A DNA stretch of 64,000 nt from a virus (IMGVR_UViG_2744054962_000001); one strand, 5' to 3'. Counted from the first letter of the stretch, positions 3 through 63,394 are shown. Translations and numbers: made by a program. Notes: generated from the letters alone by a model not told the origin.

Positions 3-461
3 AACGAAAATAACACTGACGCCTATATTAATGAGGTGTCCAAAGCAGTTGGTGTAACCGCAGACATGATTATCGATCTGCATGATTACGACATCCTTCG
101 ACCTTTAGTTGAGGCAATCATTCGCCACGAGAATGGCCGAGGCCCGCTAAAAACGCTGAACACCTGGTATGCGGCAGAAGTTATTGAGGAAGGTCTGCGT
201 CGAGCTGGCGTCGTTAAGCCGGTGAAAACGGTGAAGGCTGTTCCTGTAACGAAAGAAACCGCAGGCGCAACTGTTACAGCAGGTATTGGTCTGGCGCAGC
301 TTGCCGATGTTATGCCGCAGATTTCCGCTGCTATGGATAAAGCACAAGGTCATATCTCTAGCGGGGATACAGTACGCATCATCTTCGGTATTGCCACTAT
401 TGTTGTGGCAGGATTCATTGCCTGGTCGCAGGTAAGAAAACACCAGAAAGGGATGGTCTAA
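3..461 (+). CDS. C-terminal fragment of hypothetical protein with C-terminal transmembrane helix; 5-prime end lies outside window; possibly part of the lysis cassette preceding the spanins
   Basis: Frame open from window edge with no stop; hydrophobic stretch IIFGIATIVVAGFIAW near C-terminus; ends 2 bp before the Rz-like gene. Confidence 0.35.
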   Translation, partial: NENNTDAYINEVSKAVGVTADMIIDLHDYDILRPLVEAIIRHENGRGPLKTLNTWYAAEVIEEGLRRAGVVKPVKTVKAVPVTKETAGATVTAGIGLAQLADVMPQISAAMDKAQGHISSGDTVRIIFGIATIVVAGFIAWSQVRKHQKGMV

Positions 462-1999: not shown

Positions 2000-2668
2000 A
2001 TGACCAAGATCTTTGTGGTTGGCGGCACAAAGGGCGGGCCTGGCAAATCCACCGTTGCCCAGCAAATTGCCGTTTGCCTGAAAGTCAAAAAGAAGAAGAA
2101 GGTTTATATTACCGATATAGATATTCAGCGCACGACAACGAGCTGGTGTGAAGACCGTCGACAGAACGAAGACCTTGAGCTGATTCCTTTTGCATACGTT
2201 CAGGATGACATCATTAAGCACCTAAAATCGCTTCAGGGTAGAGCTGAGTTTGTAGTGGTAGATGCTGGTGGCTTCGACTCCGAAATTCAGCGACAAGCGA
2301 TGCTGATGGCTGACGTTATCATTATCCCGCTGCGTCCTAAGCGTCGTGATTTGAAATCTTTACGTGACATCGATCCTATTATCGACAATGTTCGCAATGT
2401 AAACGATAAAGTGAAGGTCCGCGCGGTCATGAACCAGTGCCCGGCTTTGCCATCACAAGTGTCTCGCATTCTGGCGGCTAAAGAGATTGTTGAGACGTTT
2501 GGAATCGAGTCTGCGCCAGTCAATCTATATAACCGCAACGTCTATGATGATGCGGAAGAGTCTGGTCGTTCTATCTTTGAAATGACCGGTAGCGAGCGCG
2601 ACAAAAAGGCGGAAGCCGAGTTTGAAGAATTTGTAGATTATCTGTTGAGTCTGGAGGAAGAAGAATAA
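2000..2668 (+). CDS. parA: ParA-family partition ATPase (type Ib, small ParA)
   Basis: Deviant Walker A GGTKGGPGKST near N-terminus, 222 aa, followed by overlapping small DNA-binding gene. Confidence 0.8.
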   Translation: MTKIFVVGGTKGGPGKSTVAQQIAVCLKVKKKKKVYITDIDIQRTTTSWCEDRRQNEDLELIPFAYVQDDIIKHLKSLQGRAEFVVVDAGGFDSEIQRQAMLMADVIIIPLRPKRRDLKSLRDIDPIIDNVRNVNDKVKVRAVMNQCPALPSQVSRILAAKEIVETFGIESAPVNLYNRNVYDDAEESGRSIFEMTGSERDKKAEAEFEEFVDYLLSLEEEE

Positions 2669-3027
2669 TGTCCATGAAAATGGGTGACCTAGCAAAGCGC
2701 AAAGAGCCTGATGCACCGGCTAAGAACACAACTCCTTTGCGCCAACCAGTCAGACCACAAGGACGCCCGACTCGTGGCAAAGAGAAAATTAAAAGCCGCA
2801 CTATGTCACTGGAAGACGAATACTTCGAGCTTCTGGAAATGATGAAGTTTATCCCTCGTTTCGAGAAGTTCACCCGCTCTGATGTGATTCGTGCTGCTAT
2901 TTTCCATCTGGCAGAGAAGTCACCGCAGGAAATCGAGGACATCGTAAAGCTGAACGAGGCGATCACAGCTGCCGATGTCACGATGCGTACCGATGAAATT
3001 AAACGCGAGTTGATGAAGAAAGGTTAA
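2668..3027 (+). CDS. Partition centromere-binding protein (ParG/ParB-like, probable RHH fold)
   Basis: 119 aa, start overlaps parA stop; basic N-terminus and short helical C-terminal domain. Confidence 0.5.
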   Translation: MSMKMGDLAKRKEPDAPAKNTTPLRQPVRPQGRPTRGKEKIKSRTMSLEDEYFELLEMMKFIPRFEKFTRSDVIRAAIFHLAEKSPQEIEDIVKLNEAITAADVTMRTDEIKRELMKKG

Positions 3028-29114: not shown

Positions 29115-29380
29115 TGCTTAAATCGATTATTAATGGCGCTACAACCACCCCTACCCAACTGGCAAAAGAGATTGTCTTTTATCACGGTGAGTACGCTGTC
29201 ATCGCACTGCCGTCAATTCTGGGCGCTGCCGGAATGAAAGCGACAGATCGCGAGTTTGGATTAGTCAGCGAGCAGGTCGTAAAAATCCTCGCTCGTGTAT
29301 CCAGACTCCTTAACCACGATGCGATTGTATTCGACGAATCCGCCGCTTTAAAACGAATCAACGAAACAAAAGGAGCCTGA
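29108..29380 (+). CDS. Hypothetical protein
   Basis: 90-aa ORF between flap endonuclease and recombinase genes. Confidence 0.4.
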   Translation: MLMLKSIINGATTTPTQLAKEIVFYHGEYAVIALPSILGAAGMKATDREFGLVSEQVVKILARVSRLLNHDAIVFDESAALKRINETKGA

Positions 29381-29382
29381 TC

Positions 29383-31722
29383 ATGGCAAAAGGAAAATCC
29401 GCACTGGCACTTGCTCTGAAAAAGAAAATCGGTAGCAACGACGAAATTCAGAAAGTAACTCATTGGATTGATACAGGCTTTCCACCGTTAAACAAAGCTA
29501 TTTCTGGTCGTTACGATGGCGGCTTCCCATGTGGTCGTATCGTCGAAGTATTCGGTCCTCCAAGCGCGGGGAAATGTGTTACCGCAGACACCATGCTGCT
29601 GACGGAGCGTGGAATGGTAACAGTGAAAGAGTTGTTTGAGATTGAAGGGTACAAAGCGACATGCACTACTCGCGATGTAGAGCATAACGTTGGACTCATC
29701 AATGAAAATGGCGTGATAGAGAAGACCTCACACCTGACATGGAACAACCGTCGCAAATTCAAGCGTATTAAGCTGGCATCAGGCGGTTATATCGAGGCTA
29801 CGTTCCGTCACCCAATCCGTGTGGTTGACGACTTAGGTAATGTCGTCTGGCGACATGCTGAAAAAATCAGTGTAGGCGACACGATTCCTTCAATGGTTGG
29901 CACACATCAATTCGGCGATCAGCACCTGGATGCCAATATCGCAAAACTGATGGGCTATTTAATTGCTGACGGATACGTGGCCTCTGAAAATTCAGTGAAT
30001 TTTTCTAACACAGATCCTTTCATCAAGGATGAGTACTACCGCCTCATTTCGCTGGTATCAGACAAGATGCCAGTTACGAGAAAACATAACGGCTCGGAAG
30101 ACCATGTGCTGTTTAGCAAAGAGGTGCGTTCGCTGCTTTTTAAAGAATATGGTCTGGAGTATGAGAAAGCTGCTGGCAAGCAGGTTCCGTTGAGTGTGCG
30201 TCGCGCCAATAGCGAGGCTCAAATTGCATTCCTTCGCGGCTACTTTGAGCTGGAATGCCACGTCAATGATGGTCGCTGCATTGAGGTTGTGAGCGCGAGT
30301 GGGCTGCTGCTACAGCAAATTCGCCTCATGCTCCTGAATCTGGGGATTACGTCAACTATCTCTGAAAAACACGTCGCGGGTTATGAAAATACATATTACC
30401 GGCTGTCATTCAGTGGCTCTAATTACGACCTTTTTCTGTCAACGATTGGTTTCGAATCTCCGGCACGTTTATCAGTGGCAACCAAACGGGACATTGGTTT
30501 TGACCGCACTTACTCAGGCTATGTTCCGCACATCAGCGGCTTAGTGAAATCACTCTACGAGTCGCTCACCAAGACCACCCGTGAAGACTACGCTCTGGTA
30601 GACCACGTTATTGGCCGCGGCGATCGTGTCGGAATAGACAAACTGCGAGAAATCTATGTCTCCTTCATTGGCAGAAAGAATCGTTTTAACGAGCATCTGT
30701 TTGCACAACTGGCAGCGGTAATTGGCTCTAACTTGTTCTACGACGAAGTCGTGGCTATTGAGGAAGGTGAAGCACCAACGTTCGACGTAGCGATGCCGGA
30801 AACACACTCTTTCTGGTCTAACGGGATTATCAGCCACAACACATTCCTTGCAACAGCAGCGATGATCTCCGCTCAAAAACAAGATGGTCTGGCGGTATTC
30901 CTCGATCATGAAAACAGTTTTGACGTTGGCCTGGCTGTAGCCAATGGCCTGAACGCAGATGAGGATGACGGTCAGTGGGTATACAAGCAGCCTGATACCT
31001 TCGAAGACTCTGTAGAGTTGATCGGCACAATACTTAAATTGGTACGTGATGAAGAGCTTATCCCCGAATCAGCACCTATCTGTATCGTGGCTGACTCTCT
31101 TGCGTCTATGGTTCCGAACTCCAAAGCCGAGAAGTTCGAAAAGATGGCTGAAGGCACTGCCAAAGACAAAGATCAGCTAAACATGAACGACAATACGGCA
31201 CTGGCTCGTGCGACGAGTGCGAACTTCCCTACTCTGGCTTTGTGGGCACGCAAATACAACGCCTGCATCATCTTCTTGAATCAGGTTCGCACAAAAATCG
31301 GTGTAATGTTTGGCGACCCTACTACGTCGCCAGGTGGAGATTCACCGAAGTTCTACGCATCTGTACGTATCCGTCTTGGTGCATCGGTGATGAAGGATGG
31401 TAAAGAGAAGATCGGTCAGGACGTAGGCGCAGAATGCATCAAAAACAAAGTTGCACCACCGTATGGCAAATGCACCTGGAAATTCTACTTCGATCCTACT
31501 CGTGGCCTCGACGTTATCGAGTCGCTCGTCGAGTACATGCTGGAAGAAGGATACCTGCCAAAGAACGCCAGCGGTCGAGTAGAAATTGGTGACAAGAAAT
31601 ACACCAAATCACAGATCGTCGAGATGTATCGGGAGAAGCCACTGGCTGAAATCATTGCGGCTTTGCAGGCAATCGACGACCGAAGAGCAAAAGACAACCC
31701 CACCGAGTCAGTAGAAGAGTAA
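29383..31722 (+). CDS. RecA/UvsX-like recombinase interrupted by an intein
   Basis: P-loop GPPSAGK split from TFLATAAMISAQ by 422 aa; extein about 357 aa. Confidence 0.75.
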   Translation: MAKGKSALALALKKKIGSNDEIQKVTHWIDTGFPPLNKAISGRYDGGFPCGRIVEVFGPPSAGKCVTADTMLLTERGMVTVKELFEIEGYKATCTTRDVEHNVGLINENGVIEKTSHLTWNNRRKFKRIKLASGGYIEATFRHPIRVVDDLGNVVWRHAEKISVGDTIPSMVGTHQFGDQHLDANIAKLMGYLIADGYVASENSVNFSNTDPFIKDEYYRLISLVSDKMPVTRKHNGSEDHVLFSKEVRSLLFKEYGLEYEKAAGKQVPLSVRRANSEAQIAFLRGYFELECHVNDGRCIEVVSASGLLLQQIRLMLLNLGITSTISEKHVAGYENTYYRLSFSGSNYDLFLSTIGFESPARLSVATKRDIGFDRTYSGYVPHISGLVKSLYESLTKTTREDYALVDHVIGRGDRVGIDKLREIYVSFIGRKNRFNEHLFAQLAAVIGSNLFYDEVVAIEEGEAPTFDVAMPETHSFWSNGIISHNTFLATAAMISAQKQDGLAVFLDHENSFDVGLAVANGLNADEDDGQWVYKQPDTFEDSVELIGTILKLVRDEELIPESAPICIVADSLASMVPNSKAEKFEKMAEGTAKDKDQLNMNDNTALARATSANFPTLALWARKYNACIIFLNQVRTKIGVMFGDPTTSPGGDSPKFYASVRIRLGASVMKDGKEKIGQDVGAECIKNKVAPPYGKCTWKFYFDPTRGLDVIESLVEYMLEEGYLPKNASGRVEIGDKKYTKSQIVEMYREKPLAEIIAALQAIDDRRAKDNPTESVEE
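29575..30840 (+). mobile_element. Intein with LAGLIDADG homing endonuclease domain inserted in the RecA P-loop
   Basis: Begins with Cys after GPPSAGK, ends SHN followed by Thr; LAGLIDADG-like blocks LMGYLIADGYV and FLRGYFELECHV. Confidence 0.7.
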
Positions 31723-33916: not shown

Positions 33917-34248
33917 AGGCCATCCCATTCGCGCTGTTGTTCCTTTCTTCGATCGTTGTGGCCGACACCACTGTTTATCAGTGTGAAATGTCTGTAGCCG
34001 ACGTTAAGAATGGCGCTCTTACCGACGTCATAAAAGCACCATATGGAGCGATGGTCGTAGACAGCGGCGACCAGTTCTATGTTGTGCGTGACGATCGAGT
34101 GTTGTCATCCCCATATCTCACAAATCGTAATGGCAAATTAACCGGCGTCGGAGAAGACCACTTCGTATACAACAAATACAAGGGCTTCTATGGCGTTCAC
34201 GCTTCTCAGCAAAGCTACCTTTTCGATGACTGCAAGGAGGTTGGATAA
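33913..34248 (+). CDS. Secreted hypothetical protein
   Basis: N-terminal signal peptide MKAIPFALLFLSSIVVA. Confidence 0.45.
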   Translation: MKAIPFALLFLSSIVVADTTVYQCEMSVADVKNGALTDVIKAPYGAMVVDSGDQFYVVRDDRVLSSPYLTNRNGKLTGVGEDHFVYNKYKGFYGVHASQQSYLFDDCKEVG

Positions 34249-34460
34249 TGGCATTAACACTGGCAGGTCTGGAAATCGAGAAAACAAGCGGCTACTGGCG
34301 TGCTAAGGGTTTCAAGCAGCCTGGCATTCTTGAGCGTCTGGAACGTGAAGATGGGTATATCGTCCACCAGCGGCGTGAATGGCGTATGTACAATCCAGAA
34401 ACAGGAAAACTGACTACAAAAGCCGGAACACTTTGGGGCCTGTTGAAGAAAATACACTAA
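34248..34460 (+). CDS. Hypothetical protein
   Basis: 70-aa ORF translationally coupled to upstream gene. Confidence 0.4.
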   Translation: MALTLAGLEIEKTSGYWRAKGFKQPGILERLEREDGYIVHQRREWRMYNPETGKLTTKAGTLWGLLKKIH

Positions 34461-34465
34461 TAGCA

Positions 34466-34949
34466 CCAACCACTGCGGTGAGTAGCCAGCTCACCGCATT
34501 CGTATCAGCTCATTATCCACCGTGGTCTGCAGTCCTCTCTTCCTACATATCTGCTAACCACTGTAGCGAGTAGACAGCCTTTCATTCGCATCAAACAACC
34601 ACTATGGTGAGTATTGGAGTGAGATGTCCAGCTGGTATCCACTATGGTGAGTAAGCCTTTGCTGTTTTCAGTGGATATCCACTCGCCACAGTGGATACGC
34701 TCAAAGATGAGGGCGACAACAACCACTATAGACAGTGAATTTTCCAAGATACCCAGTGACCACTAACCTCGCAGCCCTTGTTTCATCAGTGTTAGTGATC
34801 ACTAACATTTAATTCAGTATTTGCATTCTACTGCCTACAGTGGTTATCAACAGATAACGATACTCACTATAGTGGATAGCGAATTACAGATATAAGTAAG
34901 GCTCACTACAGTGGATAGTGAGCCTTACTACTAACTACAGTGGTTGGGC
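34466..34949. repeat. Iteron array downstream of rep gene
   Basis: At least 10 copies of a motif around CCACTATGGTGAGT / CACTATAGTGGATAG in both orientations. Confidence 0.6.
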
Positions 34950-36004
34950 TATTTGCGAGTCTTTGCCTTGCGCAACTCTTCGAGAAGCGCCAGTTCTTCT
35001 TTACTCAACATGACCATTTTGCCTTCTTTTTCGTCAGGCACAACGTCGATAATGTCATCTTGATTCTCATCTGGGAGGCTATATTCCGTCTCATCATTAT
35101 CGATTTTTGTTGATATTTGTGCCTGGCGTAACTTTGGCCGCCTATAGTGGATGATGAAGTAGACCGAGTTTCCGCGCTTAACTTCCGTGTAATCGAGATA
35201 TCCTATCTCTCGCAGCTGTTCCATAGCCTTTCTTACCGTCGCATTCTGAGTAATAGTGCGACTTGTCAGATTAAGTCTGGCGCGTAAACGAGCTAGTGAT
35301 ATTGGTGCCGGATCAGGCGGCAAACTTTCAATAAAAGTATAAAGCGCCTGAGCGGATTCTTTTCTTGAGAGTTCGTTTATAGCCCGGAGTTGCAGAAGAA
35401 CCTTTTTGTCGAACTGGTAGAGTTCGAAAATCTTGGGATCTGCTTTCAGTTCGACCGTATCGTGCTTGACACTATATTTTGCCGTTTGCACAAGATGCGT
35501 TACGTAAAACTCATCAGAGCCTTTGCTACGGAACGAGATGGTATTTGTGGCAATACGGCTTAGCGAACTGTCCAGGCGTTTGCGTAACTTCGCTGATGAC
35601 CTGGCGGTCGGAATGCCACACAGCCTTACAAACTCAACGAACGGCAACGTGACAGTATCGCCAACGACCTTGTGTTTGGCAAACGCGTGGATTATTCCCA
35701 CCCACGTTTTAAAGTCGTTATCCATATCAAGCCGAAGGCCAGAGATCCTTATGTCTTCGTACCCTTCGGCTTTTGCCAGAGACAGCTGTTTGAGTTCAGC
35801 AGAGGCATCCATAGAGACCATTTGCCCCTTTCTTCCTCTGGATGTCGATTTCAGCGTCGGAACGAAGAGGCCCAGACGCATCAAAGCAACAGGCTGAACA
35901 GTGTTATTAGTGTTAGGAACCAACGTAACAACTTCGCCTGTCTTTTTATCTGTTTCTGAAAATGCTTCAACGATCGCTATGTTTTTATTGCCGTTTTCGC
36001 TCAT
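34949..36004 (-). CDS. repA: Plasmid replication initiator (RepA-like, iteron-binding)
   Basis: 351-aa minus-strand gene flanked on both sides by iteron arrays; protein motifs themselves not diagnostic without a search. Confidence 0.6.
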
Positions 36005-36047
36005 TCCAAATGTCTCTTGTTATTCGACGGCTTTGGTGGCCTTTGCT

Positions 36048-36172
36048 GATTACAGTGGATAGTAGCACTCATCACAGCGGTTATCCTACCGTCTATAGTG
36101 GTTTTTCTCCTCTCTATAGTGGTTGCTTTGCTCCCTATAGTGGATTATTCGCTCTCTATAGTGGATATCGAT
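36048..36172. repeat. Iteron array (origin-proximal, upstream of rep)
   Basis: Copies of CTCTATAGTGG(A/T)T at about 21-22 bp spacing (36091, 36112, 36133, 36155). Confidence 0.6.
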
Positions 36173-36278
36173 CATGTCTGAAGGCAGATGGCGCAACGGT
36201 TTGAGGTGGGCGGGGATCTTATTGGGTCTTTATGGGTCTCTTTGGTTCTCTTTGTGATCTGAATTACTGGATCGGGCC

Positions 36279-36287
36279 TGTGGATAA
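36279..36287. promoter_or_regulatory. DnaA box (TTATCCACA on minus strand)
   Basis: TGTGGATAA perfect match to reverse complement of DnaA-box consensus; second near-match at 36325-36333. Confidence 0.5.
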
Positions 36288-36439
36288 AATCAGAGGATTT
36301 CAAGAACAGGTAACTCTACTCTTCTGTGGATATTTAAGGACATAAGAATCATGACTAAGAGTAGAGTTTAAAATATATCTATGTATATCAGTATGTTAAT
36401 GAAGAATTAAGTCATTAAGTTATCCATAAAAGACAATGT

Positions 36440-36556
36440 GCTCTACTCTCTACAGTGGATATATACAGCTCTCCAGAGTGGTTGTTTTACTCTTCATAGC
36501 GGTTATTCAGCTCTCTACAGAGGTTTCTTTGCTCTCCATAGTGGATGGCAACACCC
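36440..36556. repeat. Second iteron array
   Basis: Five copies of CTCTACAGTGGATA-like motif at about 21 bp spacing after an AT-rich stretch (36340-36430). Confidence 0.55.
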
Positions 36557-36589
36557 TTTCAGACCAGTAACCGCAACGGCTAGAGGCGA

Positions 36590-36650
36590 TCGGGGATCTC
36601 TTTGGATCTTCTATTTGATCTTACTTGGGATCTCTTATTTGGATCTATCC
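36590..36650. promoter_or_regulatory. GATC (Dam site) cluster in origin region
   Basis: Five GATC in about 60 bp; similar cluster at 36205-36275. Confidence 0.45.
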
Positions 36651-36746
36651 AGTGGATAACTGGGATAAGTAAAACAGGCAAATGCAGATTAAGGTATGCC
36701 TAATGAGTTATCGTAGCATCGGCCAATAACTACTGAAAAAACGATT

Positions 36747-37391
36747 ATGGATCTAAAACGCACGCGCTGGGTTCGTCGTCTTGAGGACGGCTCCTACACT
36801 ATCGAATCAAATTCCAACCTGAATAAGCAGAAGTTGCTTTGTGACATCTGCGGTATAGCGGCGAAGTGCCCGATCTACGAAACCAGAATTAAACTTGATA
36901 AGGCTGGTGTGAATTTTCATTTAAACAGTTGCATCAGGTACGTTCCATTGCTCGCATTTCGTAAACCGATCATCGGATTGGATGCACCCTACTTCAACAC
37001 ACTCCGTTCAGGTGTGACGTGGCAAGATCGTTTATCACCAGACAAGCTGATTTGCCTTGTATCCGCAGACACAGGGAAAATCATCCGTTTTGGGAAAGTA
37101 GACAAGGTTTACTCAGGCCCAGTAGACGAAATGTTGCGGAAACACAGCCGGTTTAATCATCTCTGTATGGGTGGTGAGAAAATCGAGAAGGTAGAAGAAG
37201 TGATCCGCAAATCCTACGGACACTTCCTGACCAAAGATAGCCTGCTCACCGCAATCTACATCAGACATGTAAAACGTGAGTTCGACCTCGAATACCACAG
37301 TGAAGAAGAGCTTAACCTTGTTGACCCACGTCCAAAAGCTGGCGTCATAAGCATAAACGCAGCGCGTAAAAAGCCCACTGAGACGTTTTAA
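36747..37391 (+). CDS. Hypothetical protein
   Basis: 214-aa ORF adjacent to origin. Confidence 0.45.
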   Translation: MDLKRTRWVRRLEDGSYTIESNSNLNKQKLLCDICGIAAKCPIYETRIKLDKAGVNFHLNSCIRYVPLLAFRKPIIGLDAPYFNTLRSGVTWQDRLSPDKLICLVSADTGKIIRFGKVDKVYSGPVDEMLRKHSRFNHLCMGGEKIEKVEEVIRKSYGHFLTKDSLLTAIYIRHVKREFDLEYHSEEELNLVDPRPKAGVISINAARKKPTETF

Positions 37392-52801: not shown

Positions 52802-53395
52802 ATGATTGCAGCCGAAAAAATCAAACAGCGAAAGCGCGACAACTCTCTTCGTGACCTCTGGAGAACACCTGACTGGCTGTTTTCTGCCATTCAACGTTAT
52901 CTTGGAGTGACATTTGATGTTGACGTTGCCTGCAACAAGGACAATGCGAAGCTGCCTAATTTCATAGGCGTTGAGCGTGATGCTTTGAAATCTGAATGGG
53001 GAAAGCCAGGTACAATTGCCTTCCTCAATCCACCCTACTCCAAAATCTCCCCCTGGATTGATGCGGCTATACGTGAGCAGGCTCGCGGAGTTACAACAGT
53101 GATGCTAATTCCTCAATCCCTCGATACAAAGTGGTATGAGCGTGCAACAGAGTGTGCGAATGAGACGATTATTCTGTCTGGTGGCCGCGTAGCGTTTGTC
53201 GAGCCTGACGTCAATTTGGGTCAGGTAGAAGTAAACATCAACCCCGGTGGCAGTATGCTCGTTGTTTTTCGAGGATTCTGTCAGGACGCTGGGCACTCTA
53301 TAAGCAAGATCCCTTTGGACGTCATGAAAAGTCTGGGAGGGTATGATCCTGCGAATGTGATCAGGAAAAAAAGACCATCAAAGAAGGCTGCTTAG
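52802..53395 (+). CDS. Orphan DNA N6-adenine methyltransferase (phage Dam-like)
   Basis: Catalytic NPPY motif (FLNPPYSK); 197 aa with no adjacent restriction gene. Confidence 0.65.
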   Translation: MIAAEKIKQRKRDNSLRDLWRTPDWLFSAIQRYLGVTFDVDVACNKDNAKLPNFIGVERDALKSEWGKPGTIAFLNPPYSKISPWIDAAIREQARGVTTVMLIPQSLDTKWYERATECANETIILSGGRVAFVEPDVNLGQVEVNINPGGSMLVVFRGFCQDAGHSISKIPLDVMKSLGGYDPANVIRKKRPSKKAA

Positions 53396-58315: not shown

Positions 58316-58343
58316 CTATCGACTATCGACTATCGACTATCGG
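58316..58343. repeat. Heptanucleotide tandem repeat (CTATCGA) x 3 plus a variant copy
   Basis: CTATCGACTATCGACTATCGACTATCGG immediately upstream of start codon at 58350. Confidence 0.6.
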
Positions 58344-58818: not shown

Positions 58819-61800
58819 CTATATCTGCCCACCTACTCCTTTGAACTTTTCAATAAACGTGACGATTTTCTGGAAAACGGTCTGTTTTTTCGTTTTATAT
58901 TGCGGGTTTAACGGACTAAGTTTTGGTAATGTCTCGTTTAATTCTGTGCCATTTTCGGTGGCGTATTCGCGTTTTAAAGACGTGCGAATATAGCGTTTCG
59001 CCGCCTCTTCATTGAGATTTTCTTCTTTTATCAATGCTTCTGCTTCACGTTGCTGTTCGCGTTGAGCAAACGTAAAGAATGCCTCAATGATACTGGCTTT
59101 GTCTGGTAAATCATCCAGGTTCGTTTGCTGAATAAAATCGACCACCAGGCCCTCTTTCGCCCGGTTCCCCAGGCTTGAACGAATTAAGCGTTTGACCTCT
59201 TCGATCATTTCGCCCTTGCCTTTATTTTGTCTGTTGTGTTCGAAAATCAGTCCAAGGATATAATCCAGGTTTATTTCCTGAGACTTCAGCAAATCGACCT
59301 CAAAAACTACGTCATCCCAGTCAGTGGTTGATTTCTCTTTTTTCTCAGCTTCTTTCTCACGGCGTTGCCAGTCGCGAATATCGTTATAGGCAGAACGATA
59401 ATCCTGAATCTTGCGTTCAGCAGGGAGACGAATCGTTTGCAATTCAGCGAACTTTTCATCATCCACATAATGTTCTTCTTTGAATTTTTCTACCGCAACA
59501 GGATCGCTAAGATCGATTTGTTGCAGGGCTTTCAGCGTGGCAAATTCATCATAGTTTTGCAGGATGTTCTCGGCACGCAGGTATTCACCAAACAGTTTAA
59601 CGAAGTCTTTCTTCTCTTTTTCACTTTCAATACTGGTAGGGTCAGGGAACCGTTGTTCCAATTCTGAAACTACTGCCATAAAGCCGCGCTTAGCTTCACC
59701 AGTGGCAGCATCAGTAAAGCCTTCCATATACTCTGCATAACTCTTTTCTAAAACCACATTTTTGGTGTTTTTGCCACCAAACAGCGTTATGGCATCAATA
59801 GTTGAGCGTTCCAGATCCCGGAAAGTGACGATATTACCGAAGGTTTTAGTTGCATCATAAATACGGTTGGTGCGGGAAAATGCCTGCATCAAGCCGTGAA
59901 AACGCAGGTTTTTATCGACGAATAGCGTGTTCAATGTTGGAGCATCGAAGCCAGTTAAAAACATCCCCACGACAATTAACAGATCGATATCCTGATTTTT
60001 AACCCGCTGGGCTAAATCACGATAGTAGTTCTGAAAACCGTTACTGTCGGTGCTGAAGTTAGTTTTAAAATAGCTGTTATACTCACGAATTGCAGCATCA
60101 AGAAACTCTTTAGCACTGCTGTCCATTGCGCTGGTATCAAAAGTTTCATCGGATATTTCACCAATGGCATTTTGTTCTTCATTAGCGGCAAAGGAGAAGA
60201 TTGTCGCAACACGCAGTGGGTTATAGGTGGCAGATTTATTAGCGGCTTCCTCTTGTAACCGTTTAAACGTCGCGTAATAGGCTTTCGCGGCATCCACGCT
60301 GCTTACTGCCAGCATGGCATTAAAACCTTTGGAACCAGGGAAAGTACGGTGGGTCTTCTGACGGAAATTATTCAGAATATATTGCGTGATTTCCTGAATA
60401 CGCATGGGATGAAGAAACGCCTGCTGATTTTCAGCCGCACTCAGTTTTTTCTCGTCAGTTTCTGTCTCTAAAGACTTAAACTGTGGCCGCACATCGTTGT
60501 AGTCCACCTTGAATTTGAGCACTTTTTCGTCACGAATCGCATCGGTAATTACATACGAATGCAATTCACGACCAAATACGCTGGCGGTTATTTCTGAGCC
60601 TAAGGCATTTTCCGGGAAAATAGGTGTGCCGGTAAAACCAAACTGATAATAGCGTTTGAATTTCTTCTTCAGGTTTTTCTGCGCTTCTCCAAACTGGCTG
60701 CGGTGACATTCATCAAATATAAACACCACTTGCTGATTGTATACAGGCAGGTCGCTTTCTGCTTTCATCAGGTTATTAAGTTTCTGAATAGTGGTGACGA
60801 TAATTTTGTTATCGTCCTTATCCAGATTTCGTTTAAGACCTGCTGTATTTTCCGAGCCGTTAACACTATCTGGCGAAAAACGCTGATATTCCTTCATGGT
60901 CTGGTAATCGAGGTCTTTCCTGTCGACCACGAAGAAGACTTTATCAATAAAGTCCAGTTCTGTTGCCAGACGCGCGGCTTTAAAGCTGGTCAGTGTTTTA
61001 CCAGAACCGGTGGTGTGCCAGATAAAGCCACCGCTTTCGGGGTTAGACCAGTTTTTCGCTTTATAGGAGCTGTTGATTTTCCATAAGATTCGTTCGGTGG
61101 CGGCAATCTGGTACGGTCGCATCACCAGTAGTGTCTGACTACTGTCAAACACGCTGTAGTTCACCAGAACATTCAGCAGAGTATGTTTCTGGAAAAAGGT
61201 AGCGGTAAAATCTTTGAGGTCTTTAATCAGCGTGTTGTCTGATTTCGCCCAGTTCATGGTGAAGTCAAAACTATTTTTATCGCGCTTTGTGGTGTTGGCA
61301 AAGTAACGGGTATCGGTGCCGTTAGAAATGACAAACAGTTGCAGATACTTAAACAGGGAATTTTCGCTGTTAAAACTCTCTTTACTGTAACGATGTATCT
61401 GGTTGAAAGCCTCACGAATCGCCACGCCGCGCTTTTTCAGTTCGATTTGCACCAGAGGCAAGCCATTAACCAGGATAGTTACGTCATAACGGTTAGCGTG
61501 AGAACCTGCCTGTTCAAACTGCTGGATAATCTGCACTTTGTTGCGCATGAGATTCTTTTTATCGATCAAATAGATGTTCTCAAGACGCCCGTCATCAAAA
61601 ATAAAGTCGCAAATATAGTCGATATGGATTTTACGGGTCTTATCCAGAATGCCATCACTCGGGTTGTCCAGATACTGCTCCGTGAAACGCCGCCACTCGC
61701 TGTCATTAAATACCACACCATTGAGGCTCTGAAGCTGTTCCCGAACATTGGACAGCATCGCCAACTGTGATTTTACCGAAATAAATTCATAGCCCTGATT

Positions 61801-61935
61801 CCGCAGGTCCTGAATCAGTTCCCGTTCCAGGTCCGATTCGCTCTGGTAGCTGTCGCCTGTTTGCTCAGCTTTGATGTACTTATCAAGGACGATAAAGTTA
61901 TTGGATTCAGCAATGGTGTGTGTTTGATGAGTCAT
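58819..61935 (-). CDS. hsdR: Type I restriction enzyme R subunit (Type IC, EcoR124I-like)
   Basis: 1038 aa; N-terminus [24 protein letters not shown] matches my recollection of EcoR124I HsdR; helicase motifs TGSGKT and DECHRS. Confidence 0.8.
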
Positions 61936-62056: not shown

Positions 62057-63394
62057 TTATTTACTGACAGTTTCAGGTTTTGGGAAACTGAACAGTAAAT
62101 CACGATAGTACTCGTATTGTTTCTGGCGCAACTCGATTTCACGCGGAAGGCCTTCGGTGATGGAGTTAGTCAGGGTGTCGAATTTATCCAGAATCCGAAC
62201 GATTTCAGACTGGATGGCAAGGGATTTTTCCGGATTGCCCGGGCAGGGGATGGGGATGAGTAGTTTTGACATCAATGCATTTGAGCTTAGATTCGGCTGT
62301 GCTCCGCCCCCTGCAAGGATATAAATAGTCTCTGTATTTAACAATAAAAAATGGTATAAATAATTATTGTTTAGAATATTTTCTTTGGGTATAAATTTTC
62401 CAACCCGTTGATTAAGATAACATTTTATTTCTTTTTTATAAATCCCCACTTTTCCTGTAGTGGCACCTGACATTGCAATCAATATATTTCCCATAGATAC
62501 CTCAAAGGAGGATAAATCTTCCTTGTAATCATTTAGTGAAAAGTATTTCACCTCATCTAAGTTAACATTAAACCCATCTATATTTGTGATTCTAACTATC
62601 GGTAACCCAGTTTCTTTAAATAAGCTGCTTTTAAATGCAAATCCATTTTTAAAATCACAAACATCCTTCAGGGTTTTCCACTCAACCTCAACCCCATCCA
62701 GCAATTTTTCCAGATAAATAGGTTTTTCCTGCTCCTCATCAAAACTCAACAACTGGTCGCGATAGTAGTTGTATTGTTTTTTACGCATGCTAAGCTCTGC
62801 TGTAAGCTCTGCTGTAAGGGCGCTGAATTTGTCCAGAATTCGCACGATTTCAGACTGGATAGTAAGGGATTTTTCTGGATCATTAGGACAAATGATAGGA
62901 ACCAGTATTTTTTTAAATCTTGATTTTGAAATATTAAAGCGTGTTACACCACTAGCTGTTTTTGCTATTTCAGAGCGCATGAAATGGGTTCGAAAAAGGT
63001 ATTTTGCGAACTCCGGTTTGATTTTTATGCTGTTACTGAATCTGATACCAAAAGAAAAGCTGTTTAAATACACTGATTCTTCGAAGTGTACTGTAACGGC
63101 GGAGGACATGCCTGCTTCATCAGCAATTTCAGATGAGCCAGTAAATAAAACATCCCCATATCTTACTTTATTTTGTCTTTCTCCCTCACTAATATATACA
63201 TAATCAGTAGGGTAATCATTCACATCTAAATAACCAAATATTTTTTTGTATGAAACATATCTGGCATTACCGTTCTCAAAATCAGATTTACTCTTTCCTG
63301 TTAGGCCACCATAAATTTCAGCGACGTTCCCCAATGGCAACCACTTAACTTCAACCCCATCCAGCAATTTTTCCAGATAACTTAACTCGCTCAT
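62057..63394 (-). CDS. hsdS: Type I restriction-modification specificity subunit (Type IC) with two TAEL repeats
   Basis: Conserved N-terminal, central and C-terminal blocks ([20 protein letters not shown]...[23 protein letters not shown]) with two AT-rich variable target-recognition domains. Confidence 0.8.
62793..62816 (-). repeat. 12-bp tandem repeat encoding TAEL-TAEL in the hsdS central conserved region
   Basis: AGCTCTGCTGTA x2 on + strand, equivalent to ACAGCAGAGCTT x2 on coding strand. Confidence 0.7.

Follow-up and report, generated by a model that had tools for sequence, protein, structure and literature searches.

A predicted P1-type iteron replicon with a tandemly duplicated origin in a phage-plasmid of the SSU5 supergroup

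Two described systems frame the replicon considered here, that of phage P1 and that of the FIB plasmids. DnaA acting with RepA opens the P1 origin, in which the unwinding element is flanked by the DnaA sites on one side and the RepA sites on the other (PMC5043065). The P1 record carries, in order, nine incA iterons that end at the repA stop codon, repA itself, five incC iterons that contain PrepA, five Dam sites, and an 18-bp DnaA site made up of two boxes. Of the iterons of FIB replicons, those upstream belong with the origin, and those of the downstream block control replication through handcuffing (PMC11983097); phage-plasmids of the SSU5 supergroup are typed as IncFIB (PMC7969092; bioRxiv 10.1101/2025.09.12.675607). 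Our subject is the region around a minus-strand gene, repA, in a 64,000-nucleotide stretch of viral DNA, IMGVR_UViG_2744054962_000001 ("the window" below always means this whole stretch). The region is very probably the plasmid-prophage maintenance replicon of a phage-plasmid of the SSU5/pHCM2/Cyrano type, organized as a P1-type R replicon (oriR-repA-incA), and its two upstream iteron arrays are, on the evidence of their alignment, a tandem duplication of a complete origin unit comprising iterons, linker, GATC repeats, and DnaA box.

Five features that a P1-type R replicon should have are found at this locus: an initiator of the Rep3 family, phased iterons, a GATC core, DnaA boxes on the rep-distal side, and an iteron array of mixed orientation at the rep stop codon. 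Iterons were located with a 20-bp weight matrix that was trained on the 11 upstream copies only and run over both strands of the 64-kb window at a threshold of at least 14 bits. The scan returned 23 sites, all inside 34465-36549, against a chance expectation of 0.67 per 64 kb in first-order Markov simulations, and the top-scoring site outside that interval reached 12.2 bits. Eleven strong sites lie downstream of rep, one inside it, and 6 + 5 upstream; the downstream sites (15 to 25 bits) are independent of the matrix training set. A first-pass annotation of this DNA had claimed more than 20 copies of a motif on both sides of rep, with a periodicity of 21 to 22 bp upstream, and both points hold, the start-to-start spacings being 22/21/21/21/21 in the first upstream array and 23/21/21/21 in the second. 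Its description of the motif as a palindrome of roughly 14 bp has to be given up, as the iteron consensus is 18 bp long and asymmetric (TRCTCNCYAYAGTGGWTR, with the conserved core YTAYAGTGGWT) and the supposed palindromic core, CACTATAGTG, is present in 1 of the 23 copies only. The impression of a palindrome arose because one iteron is embedded in a hairpin at 34888-34936.

Upstream of repA the sequence resolves into two units, which we call A and B.

36044-36169, plus strand: unit A iterons, six, phased, directly upstream of repA (spacing and weight matrix)
36170-36275, no strand: unit A linker and T-rich repeats with a 10-12 bp period, four with GATC and three with GGGTCT or GGTTCT
36279-36287, minus strand: unit A perfect DnaA box, TTATCCACA (exact match; position as for the P1 oriR boxes)
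36291-36443, no strand: spacer between the units, AT-rich in this lineage only
36444-36549, plus strand: unit B iterons, five, phased (spacing 23/21/21/21, as in the single-unit Klebsiella relative)
36588-36647, no strand: unit B GATC core, six GATC in T-rich units that recur about every 12 bp (GATC density and alignment to P1 oriR)
36651-36668, minus strand: unit B DnaA-box pair, TTATCCACT (36651-36659) and then a degenerate second box (alignment)

Aligned with each other, unit A (36067-36313) and unit B (36445-36681) are 71% identical over about 240 bp, with a score of 140 compared to 24.9 ± 3.6 for shuffled sequences. The alignment runs through the iterons, the linker (CGCAACGG...), the GATC repeats, and the DnaA box and continues into AACAGG(T/C)AA. 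The tandem repeats at a period of about 378 bp, of which the unique spacer between the units takes up about 130 bp. That the upstream arrays and GATC clusters are paralogous units had been overlooked in the first-pass annotation.

Within unit B, the six GATC in 58 bp from 36588 form the densest such cluster in the window, a density reached by 1 in 1,000 random placements, which bears out one of the two GATC clusters claimed earlier. By analogy with P1, these repeats are likely the origin core, that is, the site of unwinding and of Dam and SeqA action. The one sequence of the window that comes within 1 mismatch of the oriC 13-mer consensus, at 36629-36641, also lies in this core. As a signal in their own right, oriC-type 13-mers were discarded, since the 39 matches with up to 2 mismatches do not differ significantly from the 35 expected.

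The gene between the arrays had been called rep, and its product fits that assignment.

34949-36004, minus strand: repA, a predicted iteron-binding initiator of 351 aa (Rep3 family, P1 RepA/RepFIB clade; Pfam, tblastn, and the ratio of nonsynonymous to synonymous substitution rates, dN/dS)

Both Pfam domains exceed their cut-offs, Rep3_N (WH1) with 42.2 bits (cut-off, 22.4) and Rep3_C (WH2) with 22.8 bits (cut-off, 21.1). Residues 40-293 are 47.8% identical to the experimentally characterized P1 RepA (tblastn, E = 8e-72), and the protein is about 45% identical to the RepFIB-annotated RepA of P1-like phages. The gene starts with ATG. Compared with SSU5, pMT1, and p1919D62-2, repA has a dN/dS of 0.06, with synonymous differences at 47-49% of sites. 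A search of NCBIfam with RepA gave no match, and a phmmer search of PDB sequences at E ≤ 1 matched no solved Rep, RepE included; no relationship of RepA to RepE, pi, or pPS10 RepA is thus detectable from sequence. The origin had been described as P1/F-like: the P1 half of that description stands, through RepA, the layout, and homology at the nucleotide level, and the F half, lacking similarity to RepE, does not. Short-repeat arrays around genes for DNA-binding proteins are also known at par loci, so that one could imagine the arrays as partition (centromere) sites or as operators for a DNA-binding protein other than Rep. This we find hardly tenable, given that the flanked gene encodes a Rep3 initiator homologous to P1 RepA, that the ParA-like ATPase (2000-2668) is 32 kb distant, and that 21-bp phasing, a GATC core, and DnaA boxes are origin features which P1 shares at the nucleotide level.

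RepA extends beyond P1 RepA by an acidic C-terminal segment of about 60 aa (residues about 291-351; 34949-35135). The extension occurs also in the Klebsiella, pSLy3-type, and Pantoea RepAs and in neither P1 nor RepFIB-type RepA, and it has a weak, sub-threshold Pfam match to T4_y05I_C. Next to it lies the single site that the matrix placed within the gene.

35136-35155, plus strand: iteron-like site inside repA, in the codons for FIIHYRRP (14.4 bits; exact 11-mer core CTATAGTGGAT)

About 0.01 such matches are expected by chance per 1-kb gene. The core is unchanged in SSU5, pMT1, pHCM2, and p1919D62-2 and absent from Pantoea repA, and the site uses the rare AGG codon. These observations are suggestive, but only that, of a real iteron within repA. 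A RepFIB-type repA (locus L010, 2067-2082) also has an internal iteron, at another position.

Both origin units are under strong purifying selection. As a benchmark we took the synonymous sites of repA, 47-49% of which differ, and compared each segment with relatives that include SSU5, pMT1, and pHCM2.

Unit A iterons: 85-90% identity to the relatives
Unit A T-rich repeats (36210-36275): 85-95%, among the best-conserved non-coding segments
Unit B iterons: 84-87%
Unit B GATC repeats: 77-78%
Spacer (36291-36443): 61-65%

Set beside the synonymous divergence of repA, these identities point to purifying selection on both units and to a spacer that evolves at a near-neutral rate. Three of the unit A repeats read GGGTCT or GGTTCT, and not GGATCT, in every relative; because the reading is the same throughout, we regard the unit A repeats as a conserved GATC-poor version rather than a product of decay.

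The spacer brings in another way of reading the origin. F-type origins rely on an AT-rich unwinding element. Here the AT-rich spacer at 36291-36443, between the DnaA box at 36279 and the unit B iterons, might play that part, as in an origin of the F, pSC101, or RK2 kind. The first-pass annotation had counted an AT-rich segment among the origin elements, and its composition is as described, with a GC content of 0.22-0.26 at 36320-36440. The order of DnaA box, AT-rich DNA, and iterons is the classical one in many iteron plasmids, and the spacer contains a small conserved island (ATGAATATCAG, GAGTTATCCA) and an IHF-consensus match. It is also a point against a P1-type core that the least stable 30-mer falls in the spacer, and not in the GATC repeats, in 4 of the 5 double-unit sequences, the spacer ranking second in the fifth; for this reason we retain the spacer as a minority rival. 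As a conserved unwinding element, however, the AT-rich stretch is ruled out by its 61-65% identity and near-neutral rate, which make it the least conserved part of the region and close to synonymous divergence. Its AT-richness is specific to this lineage, since the GC content of the whole spacer is 0.30 here and 0.41-0.45 in the relatives. A spacer of this kind is missing from P1 and the single-unit relatives, in which the GATC-repeat core is the least stable DNA. Weighing both sides, we consider an unwinding element in the spacer unlikely.

Two candidate sites within the spacer were likewise set aside. The IHF site at 36386-36398 is a real match to the consensus, but 8 such matches occur in the window compared to 7.1 expected, and its TTR half is not conserved. 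The promoter-like TTAACA-16-TATATT (36399-36372) is not conserved in the relatives and is probably a by-product of AT-richness.

The distribution of the two units among relatives bears on their age and on their roles. Units A and B are both found in SSU5, Y. pestis pMT1, S. Typhi pHCM2, and E. coli p1919D62-2, where the iteron counts agree with those of the window. Of the 746 bp that lie upstream of repA, at least 80% are matched by 335 PLSDB records, which, given that coverage, should carry both units; of the 91 complete E. coli genomes with the region, none has a variant missing unit A or unit B. A single unit with five iterons is present in P1, the Klebsiella (pKpn) type, the pSLy3/PhiR41_1 type, and a RepFIB-type P1 variant. 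Outside the phage-plasmids, the 206-kb non-phage plasmid p2 of Pantoea agglomerans Pa58 (NZ_CP091098.1, 11020-16246) encodes a RepA 69% identical to that of the window, has the same iteron type, and carries this replicon as its sole typed one. Its layout is five iterons, four GATC, and a DnaA box, followed by five iterons, five GATC, and a perfect DnaA box, with 14 downstream iterons. In a distant search, 88 Pantoea records matched the upstream region, and together with this plasmid they indicate that the replicon design extends beyond phage-plasmids.

Within the phage-plasmid clade, all A units group together and all B units group together, from which it follows that the duplication predates the clade. 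Comparisons of Pantoea modules with those of the window all give about 60% identity, and the two Pantoea units pair weakly with each other; the Pantoea double unit may have come from an independent duplication or from gene conversion, as opposed to one shared ancient duplication. In the Klebsiella type, the one origin unit adjoins an ASCH-domain gene, as unit B does, and shares about 78% identity with the GATC/DnaA part of unit B, which accordingly occupies the ancestral position. Unit B also has variant iterons (CAGAGTGG, ATAGCGG, ACAGAGG) that are position-specific and retained in all relatives.

The same comparisons bear on whether the replicon functions at all. The window encodes a full phage replication set, and an inactive relic could be carried along if the phage-type replisome (helicase, primase, Pol III alpha) maintained the element from another origin. 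We hold this to be very improbable: repA is intact and under strong constraint by its dN/dS, the iterons, GATC repeats, and DnaA boxes are conserved far above the neutral level across E. coli, Salmonella, and Yersinia, and the replicon is the only one typed on the 206-kb Pantoea plasmid as well as the IncFIB marker of Y. pestis pMT1.

The mechanism that we propose draws on P1 and RepFIB biology (PMC5043065, PMC11983097, PMC6090056) and on the P1 literature more widely. RepA monomers would fill the phased origin iterons, and host DnaA at the distal box or boxes, together with RepA, would open the adjacent GATC-repeat core, where re-initiation would be limited by Dam methylation of the GATC sites and their sequestration by SeqA. 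RepA on the rep-proximal iterons would repress its own promoter, and the downstream array would titrate RepA and handcuff the origin iterons, leading to a low copy number. By analogy, the repA promoter/operator is expected within the unit A iterons, the first of which is overlapped by a conserved candidate −10 element, TGTAAT, identified by inspection. As for the division of labor, we think that unit B is the ancestral firing origin and that unit A serves mainly as promoter/operator and as a source of extra sites for cis-pairing and titration. Unit B is favored because it occupies the ancestral position by the ASCH-domain gene, retains its full set of GATC sites, and resembles P1 most closely.

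A number of observations weaken the overall reading. The unit A GATC cluster (4 in 110 bp from 36170), the second of the two clusters claimed earlier, is present but not significant alone, though its position is paralogous to that of the unit B cluster. The perfect DnaA box reported at 36279-36287 is indeed there, as an exact TTATCCACA on the minus strand, and a single perfect box is within chance (4 in the window compared to 2.4 expected); the box carries weight because its position is conserved, the relatives having TTATACACA where the window has TTATCCACA. No confident sigma-70 promoter was found for repA, the weak candidates TCGATA-16-AATAAT (36171-36144) and TGTAAT both lacking conservation of the two hexamers. 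Against unit B as the firing origin, it is unit A that holds the only perfect DnaA box of the two units, that lies at the P1-like position directly upstream of repA, and whose T-rich repeats, the best-conserved non-iteron segment, surpass the unit B GATC repeats in conservation (85-95% compared to 77-78%).

These last points suit an arrangement in which the roles are reversed or shared, unit A firing (like incC in P1) with unit B as an auxiliary control or incompatibility locus, or both firing as alternative origins. The same arrangement is consistent with the Pantoea layout, in which each unit has 4-5 GATC and a DnaA box, and with the constant presence of both units in the E. coli genomes. 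Against it, three unit A repeats have lost GATC in the phage-plasmid clade, and unit B keeps 6-7 GATC, is closer to P1 and to the Klebsiella single origin, and adjoins the ASCH-domain gene as the ancestral unit would. We regard reversed or shared roles as quite possible, if somewhat short of probable.

We tentatively suggest, as a possibility about which we are rather doubtful, that the double origin is an old and selectively maintained design common to pMT1, pHCM2, SSU5, Cyrano, and the Pantoea megaplasmids, whose units have diverged in function to give two-tier control. Unit B would then provide a GATC-rich core sensitive to Dam and SeqA, and unit A the conserved GATC-poor repeats and the rep promoter; the control could take the form of cis-pairing of the units, for example, or of alternative origins used under different methylation or growth states.

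On the other side of repA lie the array that would correspond to incA and a hairpin.

34465-34948, mixed strands: downstream iteron array, incA-like control region (11 strong sites and 1 weak site, 34512-34531)
34888-34936, minus strand: conserved hairpin immediately past the repA stop codon, its stem-loop including an iteron (inverted repeat and RNA fold)

The last iteron of the array ends 1 bp before the repA stop codon. The five to six distal iterons are in minus orientation and the four rep-proximal ones in plus orientation, those in the middle being mixed. The window carries two deletions in this array (34461-34951), which leave 11-12 iterons compared to 13-16 in SSU5, pMT1, and pHCM2, and the shortening could shift copy-number control. 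The hairpin folds as RNA at -37.1 kcal/mol (z = -5.9), and its stem is kept in SSU5, pMT1, and pHCM2, where it is followed by UUUUGUUUAU (a U-run); it is probably the transcription terminator of repA.

Two further structures were noted in the array. A conserved non-iteron island in its middle (34757-34806) contains two half-iterons, ACCACTAAC, about 37 bp apart, the second of which forms in the window a perfect 16-bp palindrome with GATC, GTTAGTGATCACTAAC (34791-34806); the palindrome is not conserved in the relatives. At 34470-34497, just after a cra-like open reading frame (34248-34460), a hairpin with an 8-bp stem, GCGGTGAG-N7-CTCACCGC, overlaps the outermost downstream iteron and is invariant in 5 of 5 relatives.

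The element as a whole is a phage-plasmid of the SSU5 supergroup, an assignment that we base on its identity and colinearity with Escherichia phage Cyrano and on the phage and plasmid genes annotated there. Over the 2.35 kb at 34400-36750, identity is 99.1% to Cyrano and 83% to Salmonella phage SSU5, and colinearity with Cyrano, a phage of E. coli LF82, extends over about 58 kb of the window, the blocks being 96-99.6% identical. The Cyrano annotation lists holin, endolysin, spanins, ParA, helicase, primase, ligase, Pol III alpha, SSB, UvsY, RecA, SbcCD, and ribonucleotide reductase. The window thus joins the SSU5_pHCM2 group by DNA identity and by synteny with phage lysis, structural, and replisome genes and with plasmid functions. 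Among plasmid records, the 2.35-kb segment has at least 95% identity to 179 (mostly Escherichia) and 80-90% identity to 270 more, among them Yersinia, Salmonella, Enterobacter, and Citrobacter.

Replication of this phage-like element as a plasmid, which the first-pass annotation had put forward, agrees with what we find. The region is carried by 91 of 5426 complete E. coli genomes, in 93 places, every one of them on a plasmid and 0 chromosomal, and the window holds lysis genes, a ParA-like ATPase, and a phage replisome. Non-mobilizable plasmids make up 431 of the 454 PLSDB records that match the replicon, so that genome placement in E. coli and PLSDB mobility typing both indicate extrachromosomal maintenance. 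IncFIB is the PLSDB replicon type of every matching record examined, and the IncFIB marker of Y. pestis pMT1 is this same replicon.

Several genes elsewhere in the window deserve mention. The small ParA-like ATPase at 2000-2668 (222 aa; Pfam MipZ, AAA_31, CbiA), 32 kb from the replicon, is followed by a 119-aa open reading frame that has no Pfam match and is annotated as RelE/ParE in Cyrano; this gene pair (2000-3027) is presumably the partition pair that had been called parAB. The element also has a gene of its own for a phage-type N6-adenine methyltransferase (52802-53395; Pfam Dam, PF05869, E = 1e-38); the enzyme, if it methylates GATC, could act on the GATC-rich origin cores. A 2.3-kb gene at about 29380-31720 is annotated as RecA in Cyrano and as a LAGLIDADG homing endonuclease in RefSeq plasmids, and this double annotation of the same gene suggests a recA with an intein. 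The minus strand further encodes a type I restriction-modification system (hsdR, 58819-61935; hsdS, 62057-63394; the 3' end of hsdM, from 63391); since colinearity with Cyrano ends at about 58754, the system is accessory cargo absent from that phage. Just before that end, at 58318-58342, a 7-bp unit, CGATAGT, is present in three tandem copies.

The replicon is of a known kind, as repA is annotated in the public records examined and serves as the IncFIB marker of the group. Those records annotate repA only, with no iterons, core, or DnaA boxes, and the searchable literature yielded no description of iterons or of a double origin for SSU5, pHCM2, or pMT1, though the original pMT1 and pHCM2 papers of 1998-2002 may contain one; the tandem origin is possibly a new variant. 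The replicon group is widespread, including SSU5, pHCM2 of S. Typhi, pMT1 of Y. pestis, and many E. coli plasmids, and some members carry resistance genes. Exact coordinates for iterons, GATC core, and DnaA boxes can serve the design of curing or incompatibility cassettes and of mini-replicons, and the reading of copy-number mutants; it is the downstream array of FIB replicons that is effective in incompatibility or curing cassettes (PMC11983097). The duplicated origin, moreover, raises a modest question, for which it is itself a natural test case: how a P1-type control circuit is tuned by additional origin iterons and Dam sites.

Among described systems, mini-F oriS/RepE, R6K pi, and pPS10 RepA share with this replicon a common logic: a Rep3 initiator with two winged-helix domains, iterons, dependence on DnaA, and handcuffing. 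We saw here no conserved inverted-repeat operator, in contrast to those systems, and mini-F in particular is set apart by the unmatched RepE and by an AT-rich spacer that is lineage-specific and near neutral. The RepFIB replicons of P307, F, and pO157 are nearer, in that rep lies, as in the window, between upstream iterons associated with the origin and downstream iterons associated with control, with a DnaA site (PMC11983097). They differ in iteron specificity and in having one upstream block, BCDD'D'' in classical RepFIB (PMC11983097) and a block of five in the RepFIB-type locus that we examined. The FIB rep gene also has an unusual CTG start codon (PMC11983097), where repA of the window has ATG.

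With P1 the likeness extends to the order of every part: an iteron array abutting the rep stop codon, rep, phased iterons, GATC repeats, and DnaA boxes. P1 upstream iterons are spaced 22/21/21/21, the same 21-bp phasing as here, and three proximal incA iterons of P1 are in the orientation of the origin and six distal ones inverted, as are, in the window, four proximal and five to six distal ones, respectively. The GATC/DnaA segment of P1 oriR is homologous to that of the window at the nucleotide level and includes an identical 21-nt run, TTGGATCTATCCAGTGGATAA. The P1 iteron (GATGTGTGCTGGAGGGAAA) is unrelated to TRCTCNCYAYAGTGGWTR, as would be expected of different specificities. P1 has 5 origin iterons in one unit, and the window 6 + 5 in tandem units; downstream, P1 has 9 and the window 11-12 (13-16 in its relatives). 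Unlike P1, the window has a RepA with the C-terminal extension of about 60 aa, an internal iteron-like site in repA, and a par locus that is not adjacent to the replicon, par adjoining incA in P1.

The Klebsiella (pKpn) and pSLy3/PhiR41_1 replicons occupy the same genomic position, between the cra-like and ASCH-domain genes. Their RepAs are 46-47% identical to that of the window over the full length (49-52% in local tblastn matches) and have a similar C-terminal extension. They have one unit, with 5 iterons (ACCGCTGACAGCATA), 6 GATC, and 2 DnaA boxes, and 8-9 downstream iterons; at the position of the unit B box pair, the Klebsiella type, like P1, has two tandem DnaA boxes. The closest systems of all, the replicons of SSU5, pHCM2, pMT1/pFra, and Cyrano, are direct orthologues, which share with the window the same double origin, downstream array, and intragenic site.

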